From UHGV virus genome UHGV-1578124: DNA of 16,995 nucleotides. One strand, written 5' to 3'. The position numbers and the translations under genes are program-made. Source of the stretch: a virus. This document shows positions 6,697 through 16,878 of this stretch, piece by piece. Within the stretch, counting starts at the first letter, position 1. Every line of letters begins with the position of its first letter. The notes below the pieces were generated by a model. It saw only the letters and a list, made by a program, of their open reading frames with translations. It did no database searches and was not told the DNA's origin.

Positions 6697-6720
6697 ATAA
6701 AAAAGGCTCCCGAAGGAGCC
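6697..6720 (-). terminator. intrinsic terminator (minus strand)
   Basis: Hairpin GGCTCC-CGAA-GGAGCC; on the minus strand it is followed by a U-run (plus A-run 6697-6704), downstream of the lysozyme gene. Confidence 0.65.
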
Positions 6721-6730
6721 TATGAATATA

Positions 6731-7195
6731 TTACTTTGGATATACCGCGTCAAGATAAATCTTCGCTTCCATTCTACGTCTGTTTGTCAGACCTTTAGAA
6801 GCAACTTTCTGACCGTTGATGGTTACCTTATTCCACCACTGCATAGCTTCTGCACAGCCAACTTTGTTACCAGCATTGTGACGCTTCATGAAGGTTGATT
6901 CCTTCATAGCCCCAATACCGATGTTGTAGGTTTCAATAACCAGTGCGTCAAATTCATTCTGGGTAGTTGGAGCATTGATAGCTTTGTTCACAGCTACTAC
7001 AAACTTCTCAACATCAGCAAGTAGATAACTGTTAGCTTGGGCTTCAGTGATTTTCATACCCATCTTGACAGGTTGACCATTGATACGGATTGTACCATAA
7101 CCAATTGTAGGAATACCAGCAGAGTCTTTGTAGGCTTCTAAACGAAGCCCCTCAAAGAACTTGATAGCTTCCAATCCTTGAGGGGATAATTGCAT
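6731..7195 (-). CDS. endolysin, GH24 (T4/P22-type) lysozyme
   Basis: 154 aa; N-terminal FEGLRLEAYKDSAGIPTIGYGT block carries the E...D...T catalytic pattern and resembles P22 gp19-type lysozymes from memory; GGAGG 6 nt upstream of ATG. Confidence 0.85.
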   Translation of the reverse strand: MQLSPQGLEAIKFFEGLRLEAYKDSAGIPTIGYGTIRINGQPVKMGMKITEAQANSYLLADVEKFVVAVNKAINAPTTQNEFDALVIETYNIGIGAMKESTFMKRHNAGNKVGCAEAMQWWNKVTINGQKVASKGLTNRRRMEAKIYLDAVYPK

Positions 7196-7197
7196 TT

Positions 7198-8082
7198 TTA
7201 ACCTCCTACTGCGTTAACCACTACAGTAGCTGGGTTTGAAGTAACACTTCCACCTGCTCCAGTAACTACACATACATAGCTTCCTGCATCACCAGCAGTC
7301 GTAGTATTCTCTTTGGTGTAGGTTGCTGCTGTAGCACCAGAGATTTCTACATTATCTTTCTTCCACTGGTAACCTGTAGCTCCGGTTGCAACAATATCAA
7401 GAGTCAGTGTGTCACCTTCAGTGATTTCTTGGTTTGCTGGCTGTTTAGTGATTACTGGAAGTGCATTCACAGTAACTGTTGCAGCATCTGAAGTGACAGT
7501 TGCACCACCAGCACCAGTAACTACACAGGTGTAAGACCCAGCATCAGCAGGGGTTACGTTTGTTTTAGTGTATGTTGCAGAAGTTGCACCAGAGATGTTA
7601 GAAGCACCCTTCTTCCACTGGTAACCAGTTGCATTTGTAGCAACAACTGTCAAGGTTAGAGTACCACCCTCATTAACAGTTTGGTTAGTTGGCTGCGTAG
7701 TGATAGCTGGTGGCACAACTGCATCAATCAGTTTAGCATTCAGCATTGAGAAAGGTTTAACTCTTGCCAGCCATTCACAATAAACTGTATCAACGTCTTT
7801 ACCATTGATAATTGCATATTGTAAGTCCATGAAGAAGTCAGAAGTTCTCATTTGAGCACCTACAGAGTATAGGAGTTCTTCAGAGAATGGAACTGTGTAG
7901 CTTGGGGTGTAGTTGAAATCGGTAACCTCAGCAATGTCTGACTCAGGCCACGGAGAGCTATATGTCAGTGGTAGCACAGCTTCTTGATACGTTCTGAAGT
8001 CGTATCTCTTACCAGCTTTAACATTCGCAATAAAAACTTTTACGAACTCTTTAAAATCTGGATATGTTTTTGCTTTAATCAT
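7198..8082 (-). CDS. protein with ~120-aa N-terminal domain plus two tandem Ig-like domains
   Basis: Two ~90-aa repeats (TLTLTVVATNATGYQWKK...AGSYTCVVTGAGG and TLTLDIVATGATGYQWKK...AGSYVCVVTGAGG) typical of phage Ig-like domains; N-terminal domain is paralogous to 8079-8447. Confidence 0.7.
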   Translation of the reverse strand: MIKAKTYPDFKEFVKVFIANVKAGKRYDFRTYQEAVLPLTYSSPWPESDIAEVTDFNYTPSYTVPFSEELLYSVGAQMRTSDFFMDLQYAIINGKDVDTVYCEWLARVKPFSMLNAKLIDAVVPPAITTQPTNQTVNEGGTLTLTVVATNATGYQWKKGASNISGATSATYTKTNVTPADAGSYTCVVTGAGGATVTSDAATVTVNALPVITKQPANQEITEGDTLTLDIVATGATGYQWKKDNVEISGATAATYTKENTTTAGDAGSYVCVVTGAGGSVTSNPATVVVNAVGG

Positions 8083-8447
8083 TTATTAGCCTCTAATCTT
8101 GCGTTTAGTCTGAAATAACCTTTGTGTTGAGGTGATACATCACCAACTACAACACCTTCAATCTTATAACCCTTTCCCATTACATACTGAATGTCCATTA
8201 AGAACGTCCCTAGACCAACAATATGAAACATCGGATAAAGTAACTCTTCAGAATCTGGTAGGTCAGTTTTTGGGATGTATTTAACGGTAGCTGTAGTTGG
8301 GTTGATATCCTTCTCAGGCCATTTACTATCACGCCATGTTAAGGGTGTCGGAAGTACATCATCAAGATTATACCTTTCACCTTCTTGAACACTTTGGACA
8401 TAAGATTGTAGGAAGCAATAAAAGTCTTTTCTACTCTTTGCCTTCAT
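8079..8447 (-). CDS. hypothetical protein, paralog of the N-terminal domain of 7198-8082
   Basis: Shared blocks (M-KAK...DF, SEELLY, F-MD-QY); ATGA overlap with the downstream gene; AAGGA 7 nt upstream. Confidence 0.65.
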   Translation of the reverse strand: MKAKSRKDFYCFLQSYVQSVQEGERYNLDDVLPTPLTWRDSKWPEKDINPTTATVKYIPKTDLPDSEELLYPMFHIVGLGTFLMDIQYVMGKGYKIEGVVVGDVSPQHKGYFRLNARLEANK

Positions 8448-8463
8448 TATCTTTCCTTAACAA

Positions 8464-8484
8464 ATAAAAAGGGGCTTTCGCCCC
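8464..8484 (-). terminator. intrinsic terminator (minus strand)
   Basis: Hairpin GGGGC-TTTC-GCCCC; U-run on the minus strand (plus A-run 8466-8470). Confidence 0.6.
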
Positions 8485-8490
8485 AAAAAC

Positions 8491-9081
8491 TTAAGCCATC
8501 GTCTTAAGCATATTTTTAAGTTTTTTGAGATTCATTGTCTCGTCCAACTTAAATCCAAACCCATTGACGTAATCAATGAAATCAGATTTCTTACTCAGAG
8601 ATAAAGCATACGACATATCAAAGTCATTACTTGGGGTTGATTCTGGTGAAGTGTTCACATCAAAAGAAATCTCTGTAGCAATGCTTTCACGCTCTCTCAT
8701 ATTATCAATAAGATTACATGTGTAGTTTGCTGGATAGAATGATGTTGAGCCAGATACATAACTATACTTTGAGTTATGGATGAGGTTAGAGAACACTTTG
8801 AAGAATGTCTCTGAATCGTGACATACAAGCTTAAATTCACTATTAGCACCAAGAGCCATTAATGAATATGGGCTTTCACCATCAATTGTGTAGTCTGGAT
8901 TTCTGGATTGTACAGTCACGCGCATAAGGTTGTTTGCAATAGTCTTCTGCTTAAATGAGCTTGGAACATAGTGCATACCTCTTTCACACTGATTGACCAA
9001 TTCTTTTAGAAGGTCATCAGAATACGGTGAAGTAATTGATACAGAACCATCACCGTTGTAATTAAAACTCACGTTTAACAT
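8491..9081 (-). CDS. hypothetical protein (196 aa)
   Basis: Long ORF with ATG start, overlapping the upstream gene by 7 nt. Confidence 0.6.
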   Translation of the reverse strand: MLNVSFNYNGDGSVSITSPYSDDLLKELVNQCERGMHYVPSSFKQKTIANNLMRVTVQSRNPDYTIDGESPYSLMALGANSEFKLVCHDSETFFKVFSNLIHNSKYSYVSGSTSFYPANYTCNLIDNMRERESIATEISFDVNTSPESTPSNDFDMSYALSLSKKSDFIDYVNGFGFKLDETMNLKKLKNMLKTMA

Positions 9082-9308
9082 TTACCTGTTCTCCTGCGGT
9101 TAATAATCTTGCTGCAATAGAGAAATGAAGCAAATTCACTGGAAGAAACCATTAACACTTGTTCACTAGATTGAGCGATAGCTCTGAAATACATACCAGT
9201 TAAAGCATCATAGTGCTTATTCTTACCAATCGAAGCTATATACCCATGACTCTTTGCAGTTTGGTACAAATCAATAATATCTGTGATTTCTAATTGGGAG
9301 CTACACAT
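9075..9308 (-). CDS. hypothetical protein (77 aa), first gene of the minus-strand block
   Basis: ATG with AGAGGA 5 nt upstream; lies next to the divergent intergenic region. Confidence 0.55.
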   Translation of the reverse strand: MCSSQLEITDIIDLYQTAKSHGYIASIGKNKHYDALTGMYFRAIAQSSEQVLMVSSSEFASFLYCSKIINRRRTGKC

Positions 9309-9550
9309 AAGTAATCCTCTTGTCGTCTATAATTTTGAAAATATAGGTACAAACCAATTTCAGAGGATGTATAGTGGATTGCTTCCACACGTTTTGATTC
9401 CTTACAGTGATTGGTATTATTACCCTTTTTCTTCTTTGTTAGTTTTCTCATTTAGTCTCCTTTGTAGATAAAGCAGACCTACAGCTTTAAGTAAGATGGT
9501 ACAGTAATCCATACAACAAGTCAAGAACTATTGCAACCTAAAAATTTTAC

Positions 9551-9702: not shown

Positions 9703-10074
9703 ATGACCAAAAGAACAAACAAAGGCCAGTTTAAAAAAGGTCAATCTGGTAACCCTTCTGGGAGACCAAAAGGTTCACGTAACAAGAGTTCTCTTGTAAA
9801 AGCTCAACTAACCATTGACAACTCAGCAGAGTTTGCTGCAAAGTTATTTGAAGCAATTGTTACAAGGGATGCTACAAAGCTGGCAGAGTTTGGACTCAAG
9901 CCTGATGAAGTCAATTTGAAGTCGATGATGGAAGCTGGTAAAACTATCATGACTCACTCAGCAGGTGAGATGAAAGCAATTGCAGCAGATGTTAAAGGTG
10001 GTGGTGAAAAGGGTGGAGAGAAACCACAAGACAACAAACCAACGTTCTCTGCTGTAGCAACTCTGAAGAAATAA
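9703..10074 (+). CDS. phage protein with N-terminal GQSGNPSGRPKG motif
   Basis: GGAGG 6 nt upstream of ATG; the basic glycine-rich motif is one I associate with a conserved phage protein family (recalled as DUF5681), not verified. Confidence 0.7.
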   Translation: MTKRTNKGQFKKGQSGNPSGRPKGSRNKSSLVKAQLTIDNSAEFAAKLFEAIVTRDATKLAEFGLKPDEVNLKSMMEAGKTIMTHSAGEMKAIAADVKGGGEKGGEKPQDNKPTFSAVATLKK

Positions 10075-10085
10075 TTTAAAAAGGT

Positions 10086-10114
10086 GTTGACAGACTTTAT
10101 TGGTTACTTTAGAG
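10086..10114 (+). promoter_or_regulatory. sigma70-like promoter TTGACA-17-TAGAGT
   Basis: -35 TTGACA 10086-10091 and -10 TAGAGT 10109-10114; overlaps inverted repeat GACAGACT/AGTCTGTC (10089-10122). Confidence 0.45.
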
Positions 10115-10152
10115 TCTGTCTCATCAACAACAATGAGAGAAGAGAGAGTATT

Positions 10153-11568
10153 ATGAGCGAATTATTTAACCACGCAAAATTACATGCTGGTTTGACTGAA
10201 AATGGTGCTGTTAACCATCTGACCTCAATGTCTGCCTTGGTAGACTTTTATAAGGCTGCTGGTTCAAGCCGTAACTACCCAGAGACTCTACCAAATCTGT
10301 TTTACAAAGCTCTGCGAGAAGATATCGATGTAGCGGTTCGAATCTTACTTCATATGCGAGATGCACGAGAAGGTATGGGAGAACGTAAAGCATTCAGAAC
10401 TGTCCTCTCAGAATCTATCAGAACCAACATACTTGATGAGTTCCAAGTTCTGCGTATCATGGCTAAGATTTCTGAACTAGGTCGTTATGATGACTTCAAA
10501 ATCTTCGTAGGTACTCGTTACGAGACTGATGCTTTCAAGCACATTGAGCAAGGATTGTTAGACCCAAATACTTCAGCGTTAGCTGCTAAGTGGTTGCCAA
10601 GGGTTAAGAAGCGTCACATGAATTTTGTAAAGCGTTTCTGCAAGTTTGCAAATCTAAGCCAGAAAGAGTATCGTCTGATGTTATCAGCACTGTCAGATAC
10701 CGTAGAGCAAAAGATTTCTGCAAATGAGTTTGGTGAGATTGATTACAGCAAGCTTCCTTCACTGGCTGCTGCACGTTATCAGAAATTGTTCACACGAAAA
10801 GGTGGAGAACGTTATGCAGAGTATGTAAAAGCTCTGACAGAGGGTACTACCAAGATTAACGCTGGTGCTGTTTACCCATATGATATCACCAAAGCTGTGA
10901 AGTACGGTCGTAGTGAAGTGGCTAATGAGCAATGGAAAGCACTGCCAAACTGGATGAAGGATGGTGAAAACATTCTTTGCATGACTGACGTATCAGGCTC
11001 TATGACGTGTGAACGTCACGGTTCTGTAGACGCTCTTGATATTGGTGTATCTTTGGCGTTATACGTCGCAGAACGCAATACAGGGTGTTTTAAAGATGAG
11101 TTAATGGTTTACTCCACAAATCCATTCTTTATCACTCTAAGTGGCTCTCTGAAGAATCGTATGGCTCAGGTCATGTCACATGTAGAGTATGGTTCAACAA
11201 ACCTTCAAGCTGCTTTTGACAGGATTCTTGAAATTGGTAAAAGAAATAACTTGACTCAAGATGCAATGCCACGTAAGCTTATCATCTTCTCTGACATGCA
11301 GTTTAACTCTGTTGATGGTCAGCGTGGTAATACTAACTTCGAAGCAATTCGTCGTAAGTATGAAGAATCAGGTTATGAAATGCCTCAGTTGGTATTCTGG
11401 TATCTGGCAAATCGTGGTGGTAACTGCGAAGTGTCTATTAAGGATAACGGAGTAGCAATGGTTTCAGGGTTCTCTCCAGCTACATTAAAGGCTCTACTTG
11501 GTGGTGAGAAGTTTGACCCAATCAGCGTAATGCTAAAAGCAGTAATGTCTGAACGTTACGATTGGTAA
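10153..11568 (+). CDS. vWA-domain protein with ~270-aa N-terminal helical domain
   Basis: ATG (MSELFNH...) with GAGAGAG upstream; the track ORF starts earlier at 10084. MIDAS-like D-V-S-G-S-M near residue 280, then downstream T and D positions consistent with a vWA fold. Confidence 0.75.
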   Translation: MSELFNHAKLHAGLTENGAVNHLTSMSALVDFYKAAGSSRNYPETLPNLFYKALREDIDVAVRILLHMRDAREGMGERKAFRTVLSESIRTNILDEFQVLRIMAKISELGRYDDFKIFVGTRYETDAFKHIEQGLLDPNTSALAAKWLPRVKKRHMNFVKRFCKFANLSQKEYRLMLSALSDTVEQKISANEFGEIDYSKLPSLAAARYQKLFTRKGGERYAEYVKALTEGTTKINAGAVYPYDITKAVKYGRSEVANEQWKALPNWMKDGENILCMTDVSGSMTCERHGSVDALDIGVSLALYVAERNTGCFKDELMVYSTNPFFITLSGSLKNRMAQVMSHVEYGSTNLQAAFDRILEIGKRNNLTQDAMPRKLIIFSDMQFNSVDGQRGNTNFEAIRRKYEESGYEMPQLVFWYLANRGGNCEVSIKDNGVAMVSGFSPATLKALLGGEKFDPISVMLKAVMSERYDW

Positions 11569-11733: not shown

Positions 11734-11813
11734 CTCCGTTTAGCTCAGTTTGGTTTAGCAGCACTTGCTTTGGGAGCAAGGGGTCGAGGGTTCAAATCCT
11801 TCAACGGAGACCA
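11734..11813 (+). tRNA. tRNA-Pro (anticodon TGG)
   Basis: Acceptor CTCCGTT/AACGGAG; anticodon stem CTTGC/GCAAG, loop TTTGGGA; T-arm GAGGG-TTCAAAT-CCTTC; discriminator A; CCA encoded. Confidence 0.85.
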
Positions 11814-11819
11814 AATTAT

Positions 11820-11897
11820 GTTCCAGTAGACAAATTGGTAAAGTCACCACACTTTCAATGTGGAGTTTTGAGGGTTCAAGTCCCTTCTGGAACGCCA
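11820..11897 (+). tRNA. tRNA-Glu (anticodon TTC)
   Basis: Acceptor GTTCCAG/CTGGAAC; anticodon stem CCACA/TGTGG, loop CTTTCAA; T-loop TTCAAGT; discriminator G; CCA encoded. Confidence 0.8.
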
Positions 11898-11901
11898 AAT
11901 T

Positions 11902-11974
11902 TGACAGAAGACCAAATACAGCAAACAACTTTTACTTTTCGCGCATAGAAAACATAAAAAGCTTGGTCTGGTCA
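11902..11974 (+). ncRNA. structured spacer element E1 (bulged two-helix family)
   Basis: Outer helix TGAC (11902-05) / GTCA (11971-74); inner helix AGACCAA (11909-15) / TTGGTCT (11963-69); unpaired AGA opposite G. Confidence 0.55.
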
Positions 11975-11982
11975 TTAAGAAT

Positions 11983-12059
11983 CGCGGGTATAGAGAAAGG
12001 GCGTCTCACATGTCTCATTAGCATGGCAACGGTTGGTTCGACTCCAACACCCGCCTCCA
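11983..12059 (+). tRNA. tRNA with CAT anticodon (Met, Ile2 or initiator)
   Basis: Acceptor CGCGGGT/ACCCGCC with C1-C72 mismatch; D-stem GAGA/TCTC; anticodon stem CATGT/GCATG, loop CTCATTA; T-arm GTTGG-TTCGACT-CCAAC; discriminator U; CCA encoded. Confidence 0.65.
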
Positions 12060-12062
12060 AAT

Positions 12063-12130
12063 TTACAGAAGGCCGTTTACAGCAATTCAAACAATTTTAT
12101 CGGAAAATTAAAATGAATACGGTCTGGTAA
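12063..12130 (+). ncRNA. structured spacer element E2
   Basis: Outer TTAC (12063-66) / GTAA (12127-30); inner AGGCCGT (12070-76) / ACGGTCT (12119-25) with one G-U pair; AGA opposite G. Confidence 0.55.
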
Positions 12131-12140
12131 TGTTAAACAT

Positions 12141-12217
12141 GGTTAGGAAGCACATAAGGCATGTGCGGTCGGCTGTTAACCGAATGGCACAGGGTTCGAA
12201 TCCCTGACTAACCGCCA
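12141..12217 (+). tRNA. tRNA-Asn (anticodon GTT)
   Basis: Acceptor GGTTAGG/ACTAACC; D-stem GCAC/GTGC; anticodon loop CTGTTAA; T-arm CAGGG-TTCGAAT-CCCTG; discriminator G; CCA. Confidence 0.8.
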
Positions 12218-12284
12218 AATTTGGGAGAGAAGCGATTGCTCACCGATTTGTAAGGTGCAAGTCCTTAGCCTGAATAGAATAAAA

Positions 12285-12373
12285 TGCGTCGTTATCCCGT
12301 AGATGGAAGCGGTGGTGACTGTAAATCACTTGTCATTACGACTCGGTAGGTTCGACTCCTTCACGGCGCACCA
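12285..12373 (+). tRNA. tRNA-Tyr (anticodon GTA), type II
   Basis: Acceptor GCGTCGT/ACGGCGC; anticodon stem GGTGA/TCACT, loop CTGTAAA; long variable arm with GTC/GAC stem; T-loop TTCGACT; discriminator A; CCA. Confidence 0.8.
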
Positions 12374-12379
12374 AATAAA

Positions 12380-12456
12380 GGTTATGTAGTTTAACTGGTC
12401 AAAATACTCCCCTGTCACGGGAGATGATGAGGGTTCGAATCCCTTCGTAACCGCCA
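12380..12456 (+). tRNA. tRNA-Asp (anticodon GTC)
   Basis: Acceptor GGTTATG/CGTAACC; anticodon stem CTCCC/GGGAG, loop CTGTCAC; T-arm GAGGG-TTCGAAT-CCCTT; discriminator G; CCA. Confidence 0.85.
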
Positions 12457-12514
12457 AATTTGAGAGGGCTTTTTAGCCCCTCCCTTAAAGAGTTCTTTCG
12501 AGTATTCTTTAAAG

Positions 12515-12594
12515 GAGCAGAAGACCAAATTCAGCAAGCAACAAAAATATTTCAAGCCAATTTAATTTGAAAAATTTAAAACTTGGTCTGGTTC
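12515..12594 (+). ncRNA. structured spacer element E3
   Basis: Outer GAGC (12515-18) / GTTC (12591-94) with one G-U; inner AGACCAA (12522-28) / TTGGTCT (12583-89); AGA opposite G. Confidence 0.5.
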
Positions 12595-12602
12595 CAACAA
12601 TT

Positions 12603-12734
12603 TTACAGAAGACCGTTTACAGCAAACAATAAACAATCTATTTCTCTTATAAAGAAAAGGCGAAGGTTCGAATCCTTCACACGTTACGGCGTGTTGGTGT
12701 AATGGAAGCACTTAAGATAAATACGGTCTGGTAA
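12603..12734 (+). ncRNA. structured spacer element E4 with internal tRNA-like module
   Basis: Outer TTAC (12603-06) / GTAA (12731-34); inner AGACCGT (12610-16) / ACGGTCT (12723-29). Apical region 12662-12711 holds a canonical T-arm, an ACACG/CGTGT hairpin and a D-arm-like GTG-TAATGGAAG-CAC. Confidence 0.55.
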
Positions 12735-12738
12735 TCCT

Positions 12739-12871
12739 CTTTGCAGTGACTTATGGAGCTAATATGTCGTCCCATGAGTGCCGATGAGTTTCTTGAGCAT
12801 GATTCTAGATTAGCTTACTAAGAGACAACTCTACAAACCCTTTAGCAAGGTTTGCGTAGGTTACTGCAAAG
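12739..12871 (+). ncRNA. candidate structured RNA closed by a long-range helix
   Basis: CTTTGCAGTGAC (12739-50) pairs with GTTACTGCAAAG (12860-71). Interior holds two overlapping mini-ORFs (12764-12787 MSSHECR, 12784-12813 MSFLSMILD), the first with GGAG 6 nt upstream. Confidence 0.35.
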
Positions 12872-12881
12872 ATGATTTAAT

Positions 12882-12957
12882 GGAAGTGTAGCAGAATGGT
12901 GATGCGGCAGACTTTTAATCTGACAGGCGACGGGTTCGAATCCCTCCACTTCTACCA
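12882..12957 (+). tRNA. tRNA-Lys (anticodon TTT)
   Basis: Acceptor GGAAGTG/CACTTCT; anticodon stem CAGA/TCTG, loop CTTTTAA; weak T-arm (GACGG...CCCTC); discriminator A; CCA. Confidence 0.7.
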
Positions 12958-12962
12958 AATTC

Positions 12963-13029
12963 GCCCTTAACTGAAGAACACATGCGCGGCTGGAGACACC
13001 CACTCAATCAGTTCTTCTACAAAGGGCAA
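12963..13029 (+). ncRNA. large imperfect hairpin
   Basis: GCCCTT + GAAGAAC (12963-79) pair with GTTCTTC + AAGGGC (13011-29) around a 4x4 internal loop; ~31-nt apical loop; no U-tract follows. Confidence 0.4.
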
Positions 13030-13037
13030 CTTATTAC

Positions 13038-13114
13038 GGTTCAGTCGCAGATAAGGTAATGCAAGGGTTTCATAAGCCCTATGAATGTGGGTTCGATTCC
13101 CACTTGAACCTCCA
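13038..13114 (+). tRNA. tRNA-Met (anticodon CAT; could be Ile2 or initiator)
   Basis: Acceptor GGTTCAG/TTGAACC; anticodon stem AGGGT/GCCCT, loop TTCATAA; T-arm GTGGG-TTCGATT-CCCAC; discriminator U; CCA. Confidence 0.75.
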
Positions 13115-13116
13115 AT

Positions 13117-13191
13117 TGTGGGTTAGCATAAATGGTAATGCAAACGGCTGATAACCGTTAGAAGAGGGTTCGATACCCTCACCTACAACCA
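13117..13191 (+). tRNA. tRNA-Ile (anticodon GAT)
   Basis: Acceptor TGTGGGT/ACCTACA; D-stem GCAT/ATGC; anticodon stem AACGG/CCGTT, loop CTGATAA; T-arm GAGGG-TTCGATA-CCCTC; discriminator A; CCA. Confidence 0.8.
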
Positions 13192-13206
13192 AATTCAATA
13201 AAGTTG

Positions 13207-13235
13207 TTGATATTGAGATGTGACTACTTTATAGT
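13207..13235 (+). promoter_or_regulatory. sigma70-like promoter TTGATA-17-TATAGT
   Basis: Hexamers at 13207-13212 and 13230-13235; would drive the ~200-nt non-tRNA segment before tRNA-Arg(TCT). Confidence 0.5.
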
Positions 13236-13241
13236 AACCTT

Positions 13242-13403
13242 AGTTTTCGTTAGCGTAGCGTCTATTTTGCAAACTTAAAAATAAATGCAAACGATAATGT
13301 TTTTCTGGCAGTAGCTTAATAGGCTAAACACCAGTGAGGTCTTCCAACCCCTCATCAAAGAATTTGGCGTACTAGCCCACGGTATGATTAATAAGGTGGG
13401 CAT
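13242..13403 (+). ncRNA. candidate small RNA / transcribed spacer
   Basis: Lies downstream of the 13207 promoter; hairpins TAGC/GCTA (13312-26), TGAGG/CCTCA (13334-53), GCCCAC/GTGGGC (13375-13401); no tRNA fold and no ORF. Confidence 0.3.
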
Positions 13404-13440
13404 CTTTAAGGGCTTTCTAAGAGAGTCTTTAAAGATTAAT

Positions 13441-13517
13441 GCACCCTTAGTTCAATTGGATAGAGCAACGGTCTTCTAAATCGTTAGTTACAGGTTCGAA
13501 TCCTGTAGGGTGTGCCA
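13441..13517 (+). tRNA. tRNA-Arg (anticodon TCT)
   Basis: Acceptor GCACCCT/AGGGTGT; D-stem GTTC/GAGC; anticodon stem ACGGT/ATCGT, loop CTTCTAA; T-arm ACAGG-TTCGAAT-CCTGT; discriminator G; CCA. Confidence 0.85.
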
Positions 13518-13618
13518 ATTAGTTAGCAGATTACTTAGACGACCTTAGCGGGTCTTCCTGTAGGGAGGTGGTCTGTATCTCATGTTTTCCAGAACATGTA
13601 AATAATCTGAGAAGGGGC

Positions 13619-13647
13619 TTGACAGTGTTGTGATAATACGGTAAGCT
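13619..13647 (+). promoter_or_regulatory. sigma70-like promoter TTGACA-17-TAAGCT
   Basis: Hexamers at 13619-13624 and 13642-13647; the block TTGACAgTGTTGTGATA...TAAG matches the 11587 element. Confidence 0.45.
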
Positions 13648-13659
13648 TCGAATTATAGT

Positions 13660-13742
13660 ATGGGACGATGTTAAGACACTAAGGCATGTGCGTAAGCCTC
13701 CAAAACTTACTCAAAGGGGTTCGATTCCTCCGTCCCATGCCA
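13660..13742 (+). tRNA. tRNA-Trp (anticodon CCA), atypical 80 nt
   Basis: Acceptor ATGGGAC/GTCCCAT (perfect); anticodon loop CTCCAAA; T-loop TTCGATT; discriminator G; CCA. There are about 7 extra nt between the acceptor stem and the D-arm. Confidence 0.6.
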
Positions 13743-13755
13743 AAGTCTCATTAGG

Positions 13756-13843
13756 GGTAGGTAGCGGCTAATGGTAGCCAAACTGTCTTGAAAACAGTTG
13801 CCACTGTAGAGATACGGTGAGGGTTCGACTCCTTTACTTACCG
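13756..13843 (+). tRNA. tRNA-Ser (anticodon TGA), type II
   Basis: Acceptor GGTAGGT/ACTTACC; anticodon stem ACTGT/ACAGT, loop CTTGAAA; variable-arm hairpin CTGTA-GAGA-TACGG; T-loop TTCGACT; discriminator G; 3' tail reads CCT, not CCA. Confidence 0.75.
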
Positions 13844-13923
13844 CCTAATAAGATTTAATTCCCGCGCTCGTCGAACAAGCTCGGTTTTTACTCGTGTATT
13901 GGCGTACACGGCACGACTATAAA

Positions 13924-13938
13924 ACACCTAGTAGGTGT
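13924..13938. promoter_or_regulatory. 15-bp palindrome ACACCTA-g-TAGGTGT (candidate protein-binding site)
   Basis: Perfect 7-bp inverted arms around a central G, in the 250-nt tRNA-free spacer 13847-14093. Confidence 0.4.
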
Positions 13939-14093
13939 CACGGAGAAGAGATAGTATCAAGCTCTCCAAAGGTTCTAGTCACCGGATTGAATAAGACTAT
14001 ATAAAGACTGTTTAGGTCTTTTTAGAGAATTGCTGAGGCATTTGATACCATTGTTGCTTTGGCGTCTTAGCAGTTCTCTACAAAGATTTAATG

Positions 14094-14171
14094 GGAGATT
14101 GACGGTAATTGGTAAACCTACCATCCTTAGAAGTTGGTGTTTGAGGGTTCGAATCCCTTGTCTCCTACCAA
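14094..14171 (+). tRNA. tRNA with anticodon TAG (Leu codon CUA), type I
   Basis: Acceptor GGGAGAT/GTCTCCT (G-U pairs at both ends); anticodon stem CCATC/GTTGG, loop CTTAGAA; T-arm GAGGG-TTCGAAT-CCCTT; discriminator A; CCA; no long variable arm. Confidence 0.6.
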
Positions 14172-14178
14172 ATTAATG

Positions 14179-14254
14179 CAGGTGTAGCAAAATGGTTATG
14201 CGGCTGACTCTTAATCAGTAAGACGATGGGTTCAATTCCCTCCACCTGTACCAA
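14179..14254 (+). tRNA. tRNA-Lys (anticodon CTT)
   Basis: Acceptor GCAGGTG/CACCTGT; anticodon stem GCTGA/TCAGT, loop CTCTTAA; same weak T-arm as Lys(TTT); discriminator A; CCA. Confidence 0.7.
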
Positions 14255-14260
14255 ATATCG

Positions 14261-14336
14261 GGGATGTAGTTTACATGGTTAAAACATAAGTTTTGCAAAC
14301 TTAAGTACAGGGTTCAATTCCCTGCTTCTCCACCAA
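14261..14336 (+). tRNA. tRNA-Ala (anticodon TGC)
   Basis: Acceptor GGGGATG/CTTCTCC with a G3-U70 wobble (the known Ala identity pair); D-stem GTTT/AAAC; anticodon stem TAAGT/ACTTA, loop TTTGCAA; T-arm CAGGG-TTCAATT-CCCTG; discriminator A; CCA. Confidence 0.85.
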
Positions 14337-14342
14337 TTAGTG

Positions 14343-14417
14343 CATCCATAGTTTAAACGGGAAAATTACAGTCTTCCAAACTGAGGTTGAGGGTTCGATT
14401 CCCTCTGGATGCTCCAA
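14343..14417 (+). tRNA. tRNA-Gly (anticodon TCC)
   Basis: Acceptor GCATCCA/TGGATGC (perfect); anticodon loop CTTCCAA; T-arm GAGGG-TTCGATT-CCCTC; discriminator U (as in Gly tRNAs); CCA. Confidence 0.85.
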
Positions 14418-14423
14418 ATAATG

Positions 14424-14500
14424 CTGCTTTCGTATAATTGGCTATTACACATCCCTTGTAAGGATGGAGATGCGGGTTCAAGTCCTGTGAGCAGCACCAA
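14424..14500 (+). tRNA. tRNA-Thr (anticodon TGT)
   Basis: Acceptor GCTGCTT/GAGCAGC; anticodon stem CATCC/GGATG, loop CTTGTAA; T-loop TTCAAGT; discriminator A; CCA. Confidence 0.8.
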
Positions 14501-14504
14501 TTTG

Positions 14505-14588
14505 AGGTCAAGTGAAAGGCCGCTTGAGTCAACTGAGACCGTAGCAAATTCCACGGAGTTGAGTTAGCGGCACAACTTCAGACCTCTT
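14505..14588 (+). ncRNA. nested-helix structured element between tRNA-Thr and tRNA-Val
   Basis: Closing helix GAGGTC (14505-10) / GACCTC (14583-88), second helix GCCGC/GCGGC, internal direct repeat TTGAGT x2; followed by a CTTTTAAAG motif. Confidence 0.4.
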
Positions 14589-14594
14589 TTAAAG

Positions 14595-14669
14595 CTCGCT
14601 TAGTTTATACGGTAAAGCCCCATCCTTACAAGTTGGTGAAGAAGGTTCAAGTCCTTCAGCGAGTACCAA
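14595..14669 (+). tRNA. tRNA-Val (anticodon TAC)
   Basis: Acceptor GCTCGCT/AGCGAGT; D-stem GTTT/AAGC; anticodon stem CCATC/GTTGG, loop CTTACAA; T-arm GAAGG-TTCAAGT-CCTTC; discriminator A; CCA. Confidence 0.8.
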
Positions 14670-14670
14670 G

Positions 14671-14748
14671 TTCCAGTATCCCAATTGGCAGAGGATGCAA
14701 GCTCAAACCTTGTATTAGTGACGGTTCGAATCCGTCTTGGAACACCAA
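14671..14748 (+). tRNA. tRNA with anticodon CAA (Leu codon UUG), type I
   Basis: Acceptor GTTCCAG/TTGGAAC; anticodon stem GCAAG/CTTGT, loop CTCAAAC; T-arm GACGG-TTCGAAT-CCGTC; discriminator A; CCA; 75 nt. Confidence 0.6.
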
Positions 14749-14762
14749 ATTAGGAGATTCCT

Positions 14763-14975
14763 ATGAAGCCTTATGGTAGACATGGTAAAGTTGAAATTGC
14801 AAGTTGTGGTTGCTGTGCTTCTCACGATGGTGAAGAAGATTACTACAAGTGGCGTACAGACCATCGTAGACGCTTTCTCAGAAGAGATAAGAAGAAAGCT
14901 AGACAGGAATCTCAAAAGAATATTGCAGAATTAGTTCAAACGGATAGAGCAGCAGCCTACGAAGTTGTTTGTTAG
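14763..14975 (+). CDS. small basic cysteine-containing protein (70 aa)
   Basis: AGGAG 5 nt upstream of ATG; contains C-G-C-C; its last ~17 codons run through the 5' two-thirds of tRNA-Arg(ACG), so the true 3' end is uncertain. Confidence 0.45.
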   Translation: MKPYGRHGKVEIASCGCCASHDGEEDYYKWRTDHRRRFLRRDKKKARQESQKNIAELVQTDRAAAYEVVC

Positions 14976-15001
14976 GGGTTCGAATCCCTTATTCTGCACC
15001 A
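14925..15001 (+). tRNA. tRNA-Arg (anticodon ACG)
   Basis: Acceptor GCAGAAT/ATTCTGC (perfect); D-stem GTTC/GAGC; anticodon stem GCAGC/GTTGT, loop CTACGAA; T-arm AGGGG-TTCGAAT-CCCTT; discriminator A; CCA. Confidence 0.85.
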
Positions 15002-15019
15002 ATTTTAGAAGGTAATTAT

Positions 15020-15247
15020 ATGCGTAAACTCATTATTGAAAGGCATAAAGATGCTGACAAGATTGCAACAACACAAGTTGGGGACACTGACTTCATTCTT
15101 GTAGGTTGGAAATGTGACCCAATAGCAGTTATGAAGGTTGTTCATGGTTTTGCAGGAATTGAATTTAATCAAATCATATTTGAAACGCTATTACCAGAAA
15201 ATCAGGATACGTGTAATAACGCATATGTCCTGACAAGAGTTCGTTAG
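15020..15247 (+). CDS. small protein (75 aa), paralog of 15292-15519
   Basis: AGAAGG ~7 nt upstream of ATG (MRKLIIERH...); the track ORF starts earlier inside the tRNA. Shares blocks with the next gene (GDT-FI-VGWK-DP, FAG-E, QVIFET-LPEN-DTCNNAY-LTRV). Confidence 0.65.
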   Translation: MRKLIIERHKDADKIATTQVGDTDFILVGWKCDPIAVMKVVHGFAGIEFNQIIFETLLPENQDTCNNAYVLTRVR

Positions 15248-15273
15248 GGGTTCGAATCCCTTATTCTGCACCA
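15244..15273 (+). pseudogene. tRNA 3' fragment (T-arm + acceptor 3' strand + CCA)
   Basis: A 31-nt stretch (GTTAGGGGTTCGAATCCCTTATTCTGCACCA, from 15243) is identical to the 3' end of tRNA-Arg(ACG) at 14971-15001; no matching 5' acceptor strand, D-arm or anticodon arm upstream. Confidence 0.65.
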
Positions 15274-15291
15274 AATTTAAAAGGGTAACTT

Positions 15292-15519
15292 ATGTTTAAA
15301 CTCATAGTTGAAAAACACCCAGAAGATGACAAGCTTGAAACAGGGAGATTTGGAGATACTTTCTTTATCAGAGTTGGCTGGAAAGCTGACCCATTAGAAG
15401 TTAGAAAGATTGTCTACAACTTTGCTGGTTTGGAATTAAAGCAAGTCATCTTTGAAACAATGTTGCCAGAAAATAAAGATACATGCAATAACGCATATAT
15501 TCTTACAAGAGTTAGTTAG
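15292..15519 (+). CDS. small protein (75 aa), paralog of 15020-15247
   Basis: AAAGGG upstream of ATG; stop codon TAG (15517-19) overlaps the first nucleotides of tRNA-Gln(TTG). Confidence 0.65.
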   Translation: MFKLIVEKHPEDDKLETGRFGDTFFIRVGWKADPLEVRKIVYNFAGLELKQVIFETMLPENKDTCNNAYILTRVS

Positions 15520-15593
15520 GGGATTAGTTTACAAGGTTAAAACCTCGGTCTTTGAAATCGAAGAAGTTGGTTCAATTCCAACATCCCCCGCCA
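15518..15593 (+). tRNA. tRNA-Gln (anticodon TTG)
   Basis: Acceptor AGGGGAT/ATCCCCC with unpaired 1-72; D-stem GTTT/AAAC; anticodon stem TCGGT/ATCGA, loop CTTTGAA; T-arm GTTGG-TTCAATT-CCAAC; discriminator G; CCA. Confidence 0.75.
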
Positions 15594-15595
15594 AT

Positions 15596-15674
15596 GCTCC
15601 ATTACTCCAATTGGCAGAGAGGCCAGACTTAAAATCTGTGTTATGTATCGGTTCGAATCCGATATGGAGTACCA
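15596..15674 (+). tRNA. tRNA with anticodon TAA (Leu codon UUA), type I
   Basis: Acceptor GCTCCAT/ATGGAGT; anticodon stem CAGA/TCTG, loop CTTAAAA; T-arm ATCGG-TTCGAAT-CCGAT; discriminator A; CCA; 76 nt with a 7-nt variable region. Confidence 0.6.
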
Positions 15675-15680
15675 AATATT

Positions 15681-15756
15681 AGCAGTGTAGCATAACTGGC
15701 AATGCTCCAGCCTCTGAAGCTGAAAGATTAAGGTTCAAATCCTTACGCTGCTGCCA
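15681..15756 (+). tRNA. tRNA-Gln (anticodon CTG)
   Basis: Acceptor AGCAGTG/CGCTGCT; D-stem GCAT/ATGC; anticodon loop CTCTGAA; T-arm TAAGG-TTCAAAT-CCTTA; discriminator G; CCA. Confidence 0.75.
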
Positions 15757-15787
15757 CTTCTAAGGGTTCTTACGAGAGTCCTTAAAT

Positions 15788-15864
15788 GTGGCCTTATCAT
15801 AAACGGATAATGACCCATGCTGTGAACATGGTCTATACGGGTTCGATTCCCGTAGGTCACCCCA
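15788..15864 (+). tRNA. tRNA-His (anticodon GTG)
   Basis: Acceptor GTGGCCT/AGGTCAC; D-stem TCAT/ATGA; anticodon stem CCATG/CATGG, loop CTGTGAA; T-arm ACGGG-TTCGATT-CCCGT; discriminator C; CCA. Position -1 is T, not the usual encoded G. Confidence 0.8.
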
Positions 15865-15871
15865 ATTCAAT

Positions 15872-15947
15872 AGCTCAATTAGCTTATATGGTTAAAGCGC
15901 GTGTCTGAAAAACATGAGAACAGGGTTCAAATCCCGATGGGCTACCA
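15872..15947 (+). tRNA. tRNA-Phe (anticodon GAA)
   Basis: Acceptor AGCTCAA/ATGGGCT; anticodon stem CGTGT/ACATG, loop CTGAAAA; T-loop TTCAAAT with a weak 3-4 bp T-stem; discriminator A; CCA. Confidence 0.65.
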
Positions 15948-15963
15948 ATTTTATAGGTGCATA

Positions 15964-16698
15964 ATGAAAGAGATGACAGGACAAGGTAAAGAGATTTTCA
16001 GTCTCCTTAAATCCGGTAACGGGTTCTCTAACCCTCTTATTACTGGTGCAGCAGTTCTTGGTGGTACAGTTGCCGCTTCTCAGTCATTAGTAACTTCTAT
16101 TGGTTCTGTATCAGACCCAGCTACCCAGCAAATTCTTATTGCTGCTGGCTTGACAACTGCCTTACTAAGCAGCTTTACAACAAGCCTTGGTAGCACCACT
16201 TCAACGACAACCACTTTAACTGACTATGGACAGAAGTCTGTAGATGAGTTTTCACAACGTATGCAAGTAGCTAAAGGTTACTCTAACGTTATGGGAGCAG
16301 CAGGTGAACAAGTCGGTTGTACACCGTTTAGTGGAATCATGGGAGTTGCTACAGAGTACGGTAACAAAGCTATGGATTTGATTAATACATCCATAGACGC
16401 TGTAAATGGCGTTCTAAGCGATTTACAAGATGCGATTGATAAAGGACTAGACACCATCTCTGAACTCGCTACACAGGCTGTTACAGTGATTAATGAGGGT
16501 ATGGCAAAGATTACCGCCTACGCTAATGAAGTGGCTCAGATGATTGCAGATGAAGCAGCCCTGATTGCTGACTACCTTAAAACGAATATTAATGGTTTTC
16601 TTGCTAATGTCTTACCAGATTGGTTTGATGATGCTTGTAAAACTGGTGTGATTGATACAATCGCAACTCCAGAGATGAAAGATGCTCTAAACAAATAA
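15964..16698 (+). CDS. hypothetical Ser/Thr/Ala/Gly-rich protein (244 aa)
   Basis: The track ORF starts at 15901 inside tRNA-Phe. First ATG after the tRNA (MKEMTGQ...) has AGGTG 4 nt upstream. Confidence 0.6.
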   Translation: MKEMTGQGKEIFSLLKSGNGFSNPLITGAAVLGGTVAASQSLVTSIGSVSDPATQQILIAAGLTTALLSSFTTSLGSTTSTTTTLTDYGQKSVDEFSQRMQVAKGYSNVMGAAGEQVGCTPFSGIMGVATEYGNKAMDLINTSIDAVNGVLSDLQDAIDKGLDTISELATQAVTVINEGMAKITAYANEVAQMIADEAALIADYLKTNINGFLANVLPDWFDDACKTGVIDTIATPEMKDALNK

Positions 16699-16701
16699 TT
16701 T

Positions 16702-16794
16702 GGAAGATTAACCCTAAAAGGTAAGGGAGTAGTTTGCTAAACTGCCAGTAACCGAGAAATCGGCGTACCAGTTCAAGTCTGGTATCTTCCTCCA
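16702..16794 (+). tRNA. tRNA-Ser (anticodon GCT), type II
   Basis: Acceptor GGAAGAT/ATCTTCC (perfect); D-stem CCC/GGG; anticodon stem GTAGT/ACTGC, loop TTGCTAA; variable-arm hairpin CCGA-GAAA-TCGG; T-arm ACCAG-TTCAAGT-CTGGT; discriminator U; CCA. Confidence 0.8.
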
Positions 16795-16801
16795 AATTAA
16801 T

Positions 16802-16878
16802 GTGTCGGTGGCAGAAATGGATTATGCGCCTGTCTGCAAAACAGGTATATAAGGGTTCAAGTCCCTTCCGATACTCCA
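16802..16878 (+). tRNA. tRNA-Cys (anticodon GCA)
   Basis: Acceptor GTGTCGG/CCGATAC; anticodon stem CCTGT/ACAGG, loop CTGCAAA; T-arm AAGGG-TTCAAGT-CCCTT; discriminator U (as in Cys tRNAs); CCA. Confidence 0.8.

Follow-up and report, generated by a model that had tools for sequence, protein, structure and literature searches.

The best-described relatives of the locus considered here are head decoration proteins of Felix O1-like phages. In phage Sf14, gp20, which mass spectrometry detected, was identified as a Hoc-like decoration protein; one copy, always oriented the same way, binds in the middle of each penton-adjacent (quasi-3-fold) hexamer of the T=9 capsid (PMC11821841). Its N-terminal 118 amino acids (aa) make up the capsid-binding domain (CapBD), in which Arg79 and Arg107 are salt-bridged to the Asp221 residues of three capsid-protein subunits; hexamers on the true 3-fold axes are empty, reportedly since two of their Asp221 residues are displaced, and an asymmetric map has protrusions on the quasi-3-fold hexamers only (PMC11821841). 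A study of phage Bas63 independently reached the same conclusion, named the protein Hex-Dec, described its CapBD as pseudo-C2-symmetric, reported the other hexamers to be without density, and placed the hex-dec gene more than 10 kb away from the structural module (PMC12609058). In the T=9 head, gp20/Hex-Dec fills the 60 penton-adjacent hexamers out of 80 (PDB 9C2D, 9NCF). Here we consider a pair of overlapping genes in a 16,995-nucleotide (nt) stretch of UHGV virus genome UHGV-1578124 (the window). The longer gene encodes a protein that sequence comparison identifies as a member of the gp20/Hex-Dec family, and the shorter encodes a paralog that consists of the CapBD alone. We regard it as quite probable that the pair is an accessory hexamer-center decoration locus of a Mooglevirus-like Ounavirinae myophage with a T=9 head.

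Two better-known decoration proteins invite comparison with the long protein. T5 pb10 decorates each of the 120 hexamers in a T=13 shell and is not known to have a paralog. The immunoglobulin-like (Ig-like) region of the long protein matches the "Decoration protein" chains 5lxk_A (E=1.7e-8) and 8zvi_a, which we take to be T5 pb10, whereas the capsid-binding domains of the two proteins have no detectable similarity. T4 Hoc, like the long protein, is a non-essential, monomeric decoration of the hexamer center with a string of Ig-like domains, and Hoc-like head decoration PHROGs match only the Ig part of the long protein (aa 111–291). The domain order is reversed, however, with N-terminal Ig domains and a C-terminal capsid-binding domain in Hoc, and the Bas63 authors describe a distinct topology for Hex-Dec (PMC12609058). 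By these comparisons, the long protein is best regarded as acting like T4 Hoc and T5 pb10 while belonging to neither family.

The long protein and the domain common to the pair

The source of the window is a Mooglevirus-like Ounavirinae phage. Positions 6700–9400 are 99.4% identical to Shigella phage ESh22 and 81–86% identical to Mooglevirus and Suspvirus phages, and about 200 Felix O1-like (Ounavirinae) records match this region. The long protein aligns, from residue 1 and over nearly its full length, with chain S of 9NCF, the "immunoglobulin-like domain protein" of Bas63 (phmmer, E=5e-256), and, to the same extent, with chain S of 9C2D/9C3A, the "putative tail protein" of Sf14 (phmmer, E=6e-170). 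These matches point with high confidence to orthology with Sf14 gp20, Bas63 Hex-Dec, and Felix O1 gp36. Both anchors, Arg79 and Arg107, are kept in the long protein of the window, each encoded by AGA. The Ig domains number two in the window, three in Sf14, and four in Bas63, within a known range of one to four. From the cryo-EM and mass spectrometry of the orthologs, we infer the placement of the long protein on the capsid. One monomer would be found at each penton-adjacent hexamer center (60 sites), its CapBD anchored through Arg79 and Arg107, which would form salt bridges with the major capsid protein at Asp221. The two C-terminal I-set Ig domains would project outward as a Hoc-like fiber that presumably adheres to surfaces, mucus, or cells, a role also put forward by the authors of the structures.

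The name under which these proteins are filed in databases is a different one. Felix O1 gp36 (294 aa, 31.6 kDa) was detected in virions and was then called "major tail protein," and the label "tail protein," which GenBank, UniRef, and PHROGs (phrog_3995) now widely attach to both paralogs, traces at least to that protein and its detection by virion mass spectrometry. That both paralogs are tail proteins is hardly credible all the same, as two cryo-EM studies put the ortholog of the long protein on capsid hexamers (PDB 9C2D, 9NCF) and the Bas63 authors call the label inaccurate, a misannotation (PMC12609058). The correct annotation for the long gene is head decoration protein, not tail or lysis protein.

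A first-pass annotation of this DNA had proposed that the 122-aa protein (8079–8447) and the first ~120 aa of the 294-aa protein (7198–8082) are paralogous, and the alignment is indeed significant: residues 1–118 of both proteins align with 35% identity and 54% positives (BLASTP, E=6e-16). Each paralog also matches the PHROG family of the other at about 4e-15, and a joint alignment of the short and long families (n=14 sequences) has 32 invariant columns. The same annotation had seen two tandem Ig-like domains in the longer protein only, which agrees with our finding there of two stretches (about aa 124–206 and 209–291) matched by the Pfam families Ig_3, Ig_2, and I-set; the short protein has zero Pfam matches, none for Ig, and its sequence ends with the CapBD. 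Residues 3–119 of the short protein match the same two PDB chains as the long protein does (E=5e-12 and 1e-8). An AlphaFold2 (AF2) model of the short protein has a predicted local distance difference test (pLDDT) score of 71, with residues 30–70 poorly defined. Foldseek with this model returns two chains only, 9C2D/9C3A_S and 9NCF_S, at template modeling (TM) scores of 0.66–0.68 and a probability of 1.00, and the fold search gave no structural relatives of the CapBD beyond the Sf14/Bas63 family.

We read the domain common to both paralogs as a capsid-binding domain and not a cell-wall binder, because the orthologs of the long protein were solved with their N-terminal ~118 aa on the capsid. The first-pass annotation had left the choice between a cell-wall or surface-binding module with a role in lysis and a decoration of the virion. 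The second of these stands for the long protein, by its orthologs in PDB 9C2D/9NCF; the short protein does not appear in the published virion lists. The first, in which the common domain binds the cell wall or surface and the pair aids the adjacent endolysin, draws on position only, the pair being the direct upstream neighbor of the GH24 lysozyme and enclosed with it by one pair of terminators, and we give it almost no weight. A lysis or cell-wall reading is unsupported because the common domain is a structurally defined CapBD, because no cell-wall-binding domain (LysM, SH3, PG_binding, and others) is matched in Pfam at E≤1 and no such fold in PDB or BFVD, and because neither paralog has a hydrophobic segment. 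The Foldseek check that had been suggested for the common domain thus led only to the head-decoration chains S of 9C2D/9NCF and not to a cell-wall module. No transmembrane segment is found in either protein, the maximal 19-residue Kyte-Doolittle values being 1.22 (short) and 1.12 (long) against a usual threshold of 1.6; a holin or membrane role was ruled out on the same ground. The long protein is, in addition, abundant in virions. Timing also separates the pair from lysis: in reverse transcription PCR (RT-PCR) of Felix O1, ORF36 and ORF37 peak late, at 60 min, alongside the portal and tail-fiber genes, whereas ORF35 (the lysin) and ORF38, which flank the pair, peak in the middle period. The link of the pair to the endolysin is positional only, with no functional tie.

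A conserved paralog without the anchor arginines

The short gene is real, and purifying selection acts on it. By tblastn, the CapBD occurs in 253 phage records, with both genes in about 233 and the long gene only in 20, and in the ~233 records, which span three genera, the short open reading frame (ORF) is intact at 122–124 aa. Its orthologs include Sf14 gp21, bas63_0125, Felix O1 ORF37, and SUSP1 agp126, and the VpaE1 counterpart is gp40. The family, phrog_4463, is narrow, with all members found being 122–124 aa long and at least 75% identical; the CapBDs of the long proteins are mutually at least 85% identical. The ratio of nonsynonymous to synonymous substitution rates (dN/dS) of the short gene is 0.10–0.15 in comparisons with KPS64, Mijalis, Felix O1, and VpaE1, compared with 0.03–0.065 for the long CapBD, 0.16–0.19 for the Ig region, and 0.08–0.11 for the lysozyme. 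Compared with their Felix O1 counterparts, the short protein of the window has 76% identity and the long CapBD 89%, and the short copy evolves at about twice the rate of the long CapBD. An SP116-like clade has lost most of the short gene, and one deletion scar is common to 19 of its records; the GAGG Shine-Dalgarno segment (8090..8093) is retained in this short-deleted clade. In mio, an SP116-like phage that lost the short gene, Hex-Dec is intact, with a dN/dS of 0.01–0.12. This deletion in one clade, the faster evolution relative to the long CapBD, and the lack of a knockdown phenotype described below are what a functionless, decaying duplicate would display, yet we consider decay very improbable, given a dN/dS like that of the endolysin, an ORF intact in ~233 records of three genera, and blocks of invariant sequence.

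By its CapBD, Ig domains, anchor arginines, and locus, the long protein belongs to the Sf14 gp20/Bas63 Hex-Dec/Felix O1 gp36 family; the short protein has the CapBD fold but lacks both the Ig domains and the two anchor arginines. At the columns of R79 and R107, the alignment places Gly78 and Gln107 of the short protein; position 107 is His in Felix O1 and VpaE1, and the same column is Arg or Lys in the inspected Ig- or Big_2-bearing forms. The surface near position 78 is thus altered yet still under constraint, because the block YPMFHIVGLG around this position is invariant across the aligned sequences of the short family.

Felix O1 gp37 is not on the published list of virion proteins, though proteins of 9.7–13.7 kDa were detected. 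The virion proteins that the main text of the VpaE1 study adds to the Felix O1 set are gp54, gp58, and gp68, which suggests that gp40 was not detected. Sf14 (gp21) and Bas63 (bas63_0125), both solved by cryo-EM, encode the short paralog; the two structure papers do not mention it and report no density on the remaining hexamers (PMC11821841, PMC12609058). In the genome-wide CRISPRi-ART knockdown of SUSP1, the long gene, agp125, scored −0.39 (p=0.72) and the short gene, agp126, −0.91 (p=0.74), both "Not Fit." We found no publication that describes the short paralog, which a few genome annotators label "putative tail protein" by similarity; neither gp20 nor gp21 is mentioned in the Sf14 tRNA and gastrointestinal-survival papers, and the HIDEN-SEQ essentiality preprint includes no Ounavirinae phage. 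The short protein is real, late, selected, and dispensable and is apparently not a stable component of the virion.

Our tentative reading, the most likely of those that we weighed, is that the short protein still targets capsomer centers, weakly or transiently, with immature capsids or the sites that Hex-Dec leaves free as candidates. In that case it would assist morphogenesis as a dispensable accessory and not be a lasting part of the particle. A bolder proposal is that the short paralog is a stable, Ig-less "blank cap" on the 20 hexamers at the true 3-fold axes or on the pentons, such that, with Hex-Dec, every hexamer of the T=9 shell is capped. The substitutions at the two anchor positions would match the displaced Asp221 geometry, and icosahedral averaging, which would smear a monomer on a 3-fold axis, together with the small size of the protein, would explain why it was overlooked. 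In its favor are the restriction of Hex-Dec/gp20 to penton-adjacent hexamers, a short paralog altered at exactly both anchor positions but invariant at YPMFHIVGLG, and a late gene that is coupled to Hex-Dec and kept by purifying selection. T4 gp23 and gp24, paralogous capsid proteins for hexamer and penton, respectively, provide a conceptual precedent for such logic, although they are shell subunits and not decoration, have no sequence kinship to the pair in the window, and occupy known positions where the lattice site of the short paralog is hypothetical. We nonetheless think a stable cap unlikely. Sf14 and Bas63 encode the short gene and yet their other hexamers are without reported density, with which the asymmetric map of Sf14 agrees; the protein is not among the virion proteins of Felix O1 or, as far as its main text goes, of VpaE1, though smaller and rarer ones were detected; and the SP116-like clade lost the short gene without replacement.

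The short paralog could instead act on Hex-Dec itself, as a chaperone or assembly partner that, for example, masks newly made CapBD until a mature capsid is available. Its upstream place and the conserved ATGA overlap imply co-production, the two proteins have one fold that could pair, and late expression of a protein not found among virion proteins would suit such a role. As far as we know, T4 Hoc and T5 pb10, which are analogous decorations, do without a chaperone. In mio, moreover, the short gene is lost and Hex-Dec remains intact under strong purifying selection, and the Kolesnikvirus-like CapBD decoration gene (see below) has no short partner, so we rate a chaperone as less likely even than the stable cap. 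We rank weak or transient binding of capsomer centers first, the blank cap second, and the Hex-Dec chaperone third, with an unrelated new function making up the remainder.

Several points weigh against our preferred reading of the locus, in which the short protein binds capsomer centers weakly or transiently and the long protein carries an adhesive fiber. The capsid target proposed for the short protein is hypothetical, and with its two anchor arginines gone, the protein may just as well have given up capsid binding altogether. The AF2 model of the short protein, which would support a retained CapBD fold, is only moderate, and an adhesion role for the Ig fiber in Ounavirinae would rest on analogy with T4 Hoc. 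The virion evidence is bounded by its sampling: the Felix O1 list comprises the top 17 proteins at a coverage cutoff of at least 25%, the VpaE1 negative for gp40 depends on what the main text implies, and the mass-spectrometry table of Sf14 is restricted to pre-selected structural genes. As icosahedral averaging would blur a monomer on the 3-fold axis, the lack of reported density should not be taken as absolute. In CRISPRi-ART the endolysin, too, is scored "Not Fit," and the screen hence has false negatives.

Origin of the pair

In a profile search that covered 5.8 billion proteins, the CapBD occurred in only three architectures: with I-set Ig domains, alone, and with Big_2. In a separate profile search, the best 150 matches were giant Ig-repeat proteins drawn by the Ig columns of the query (four sequences), only two CapBD-bearing proteins appeared, and that search was uninformative on remote CapBD relatives. 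The Big_2 form is found in the Erwinia phage phiEa104 (Kolesnikvirus) and metagenomic relatives, which have one CapBD+Big_2 gene of 204–206 aa in a syntenic position between the homolog of the 196-aa gene and the lysozyme (19339–19953 in phiEa104, L007; relatives L010 and L011). Phages of this phiEa104/phiEa21-4-like type thus have in common with the window a homologous CapBD placed ahead of the lysozyme, with a basic residue at the 107 column, but differ in displaying Big_2 (PF02368) rather than I-set Ig and in lacking the short paralog at the locus. There, no short gene is present, and neighboring genes are just 3–10 nt apart. The display module has been swapped in these phages, Big_2 for I-set Ig, on a conserved capsid anchor.

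The identities place the long protein nearer to this relative. The long CapBD is 38% identical to that of phiEa104, and the short protein is 27–30% identical to it; short and long CapBDs are 34–38% identical to each other. The motifs KAK, PLT, WPExDI, and EELLY are common to the short and long proteins and are not in phiEa104. The single CapBD+Big_2 gene in Kolesnikvirus, these identities, and the joint motifs therefore fit a tandem duplication of the CapBD in an ancestor of Felixounavirus, Mooglevirus, and Suspvirus, after the split from the Kolesnikvirus-like lineage. They also fit a history in which the ancestral role stayed with the long copy while divergence was faster in the short one.

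Layout of the locus and wider meaning

The features of the locus are collected in Table 1. The short, long, lysin, and 196-aa genes are all on the minus strand, and the order 196-aa gene, (short), Hex-Dec, GH24 lysin, outside the structural module, is kept in the window and its relatives. The short, long, and lysin genes are enclosed by the terminators at 8484–8471 and 6721–6704, and the endolysin gene begins 2 nt past the stop of the long gene. As the first-pass annotation had stated, the pair lies directly upstream of a GH24 lysozyme (6731–7195; PF00959, E=1.3e-39), and its two genes overlap at an ATGA (8079–8082), the TGA of the short gene at 8079–8081 lying over the ATG of the long gene at 8080–8082. 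A 4-nt overlap is likewise annotated in Felix O1, Sf14, Bas63, KPS64, Mijalis, and VpaE1, and the overlap in SUSP1 is 8 nt. A programmed frameshift that would join the short and long proteins was ruled out, because TAA TAA stands in the frame of the long gene directly before its ATG. A scan of the stretch that separates the short gene from the upstream terminator found no fit to a sigma70-like promoter.

Table 1. Features of the decoration locus in the window, in the direction of transcription
Feature	Position	Strand	Basis
Intrinsic terminator, GGGGC-GAAA-GCCCC then TTTTTATTTG, 3' of the upstream 196-aa gene; upstream limit of the short/long/lysin unit	8471..8484	-	
Shine-Dalgarno-like AAGGAAAG, 3 nt ahead of the short-gene ATG	8451..8458	-	sequence read directly
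Short paralog, 122 aa, CapBD alone, no Ig; phrog_4463	8079..8447	-	ORF, BLASTP, PHROG, fold search
Gly78 codon of the short protein; in the alignment column of anchor Arg79 (long protein, Sf14 gp20)	8214..8216	-	alignment and codon read; R79 role, PMC11821841
Gln107 codon of the short protein; in the alignment column of anchor Arg107 (long protein, Sf14 gp20)	8127..8129	-	alignment and codon read; R107 role, PMC11821841
GAGG Shine-Dalgarno of the long gene, 7 nt ahead of its ATG and thus within the short gene (3' end)	8090..8093	-	sequence
ATGA stop/start overlap, translational coupling	8079..8082	-	sequence read directly
Long paralog, 294 aa, Hoc-like hexamer-center head decoration protein; phrog_3995	7198..8082	-	PDB chain matches and literature
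CapBD of the long protein (aa 1–118), common to the short paralog	7729..8082	-	alignments; extent per PMC11821841
Arg79 codon (AGA) of the long protein; in Sf14, salt bridge to major capsid protein Asp221	7846..7848	-	codon read; PMC11821841
Arg107 codon (AGA) of the long protein; second salt-bridge anchor	7762..7764	-	codon read; PMC11821841
Ig-like domain 1, about aa 124–206	7465..7713	-	Pfam Ig_3, ig, V-set
Ig-like domain 2, about aa 209–291	7210..7458	-	Pfam Ig_2, I-set
GH24 endolysin	6731..7195	-	PF00959 E=1.3e-39, phrog_7
Intrinsic terminator 3' of the endolysin; downstream limit of the unit	6704..6721	-	sequence; annotated terminator in Mijalis

Other genes of the window were noted in passing. 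Divergent from the decoration operon is a gene for a DUF5681 protein (9703–10074, plus strand), whose SUSP1 ortholog, agp130, was scored "Fit" in CRISPRi-ART (2.43, p=0.008) and is one of the few genes annotated without function to be so scored. It is followed by a gene for a 494-aa DUF2828+DUF7788 protein (10084–11568, plus strand), annotated as vWA-like or, in RefSeq Felix O1, as "RNA-binding protein"; this gene lies immediately upstream of the tRNA array, and a tie of the protein to tRNA biology is possible. The array itself has 25 tRNA genes (11734–16878, plus strand) and is typical of Felix O1-like phages. Inside it are two small paralogous ORFs (14969–15247 and 15292–15519, plus strand) that are 64% identical over 74 aa (E=1e-37) and have no Pfam family; the first probably starts at an internal Met18. 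A DUF7217 ORF (15901–16698, plus strand) lies between tRNA-Phe and tRNA-Ser, and as its listed GTG start overlaps tRNA-Phe (15872–15947), the true start is probably downstream.

Most of the locus is explained by the structural work of 2025. What is new is the overlooked paralog without Ig domains, a conserved and late copy of the CapBD alone, translationally coupled to the long gene, that went undiscussed in two recent cryo-EM studies of this phage group. If the short protein binds capsids, it bears on how decoration proteins distinguish quasi-equivalent hexamers, of which Hex-Dec selects 60 out of 80, and on how such proteins evolve via duplication and domain loss. It could then also serve as a minimal capsid-anchoring tag, or as a competitor, in display engineering on Felix O1-like therapeutic phages. 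Should the blank cap prove true, the two members of a duplicated decoration pair would each take a share of the quasi-equivalent sites in a T=9 shell. If, on the other hand, the short protein does not bind capsids, a structural domain would have been recruited to a new, non-virion role.

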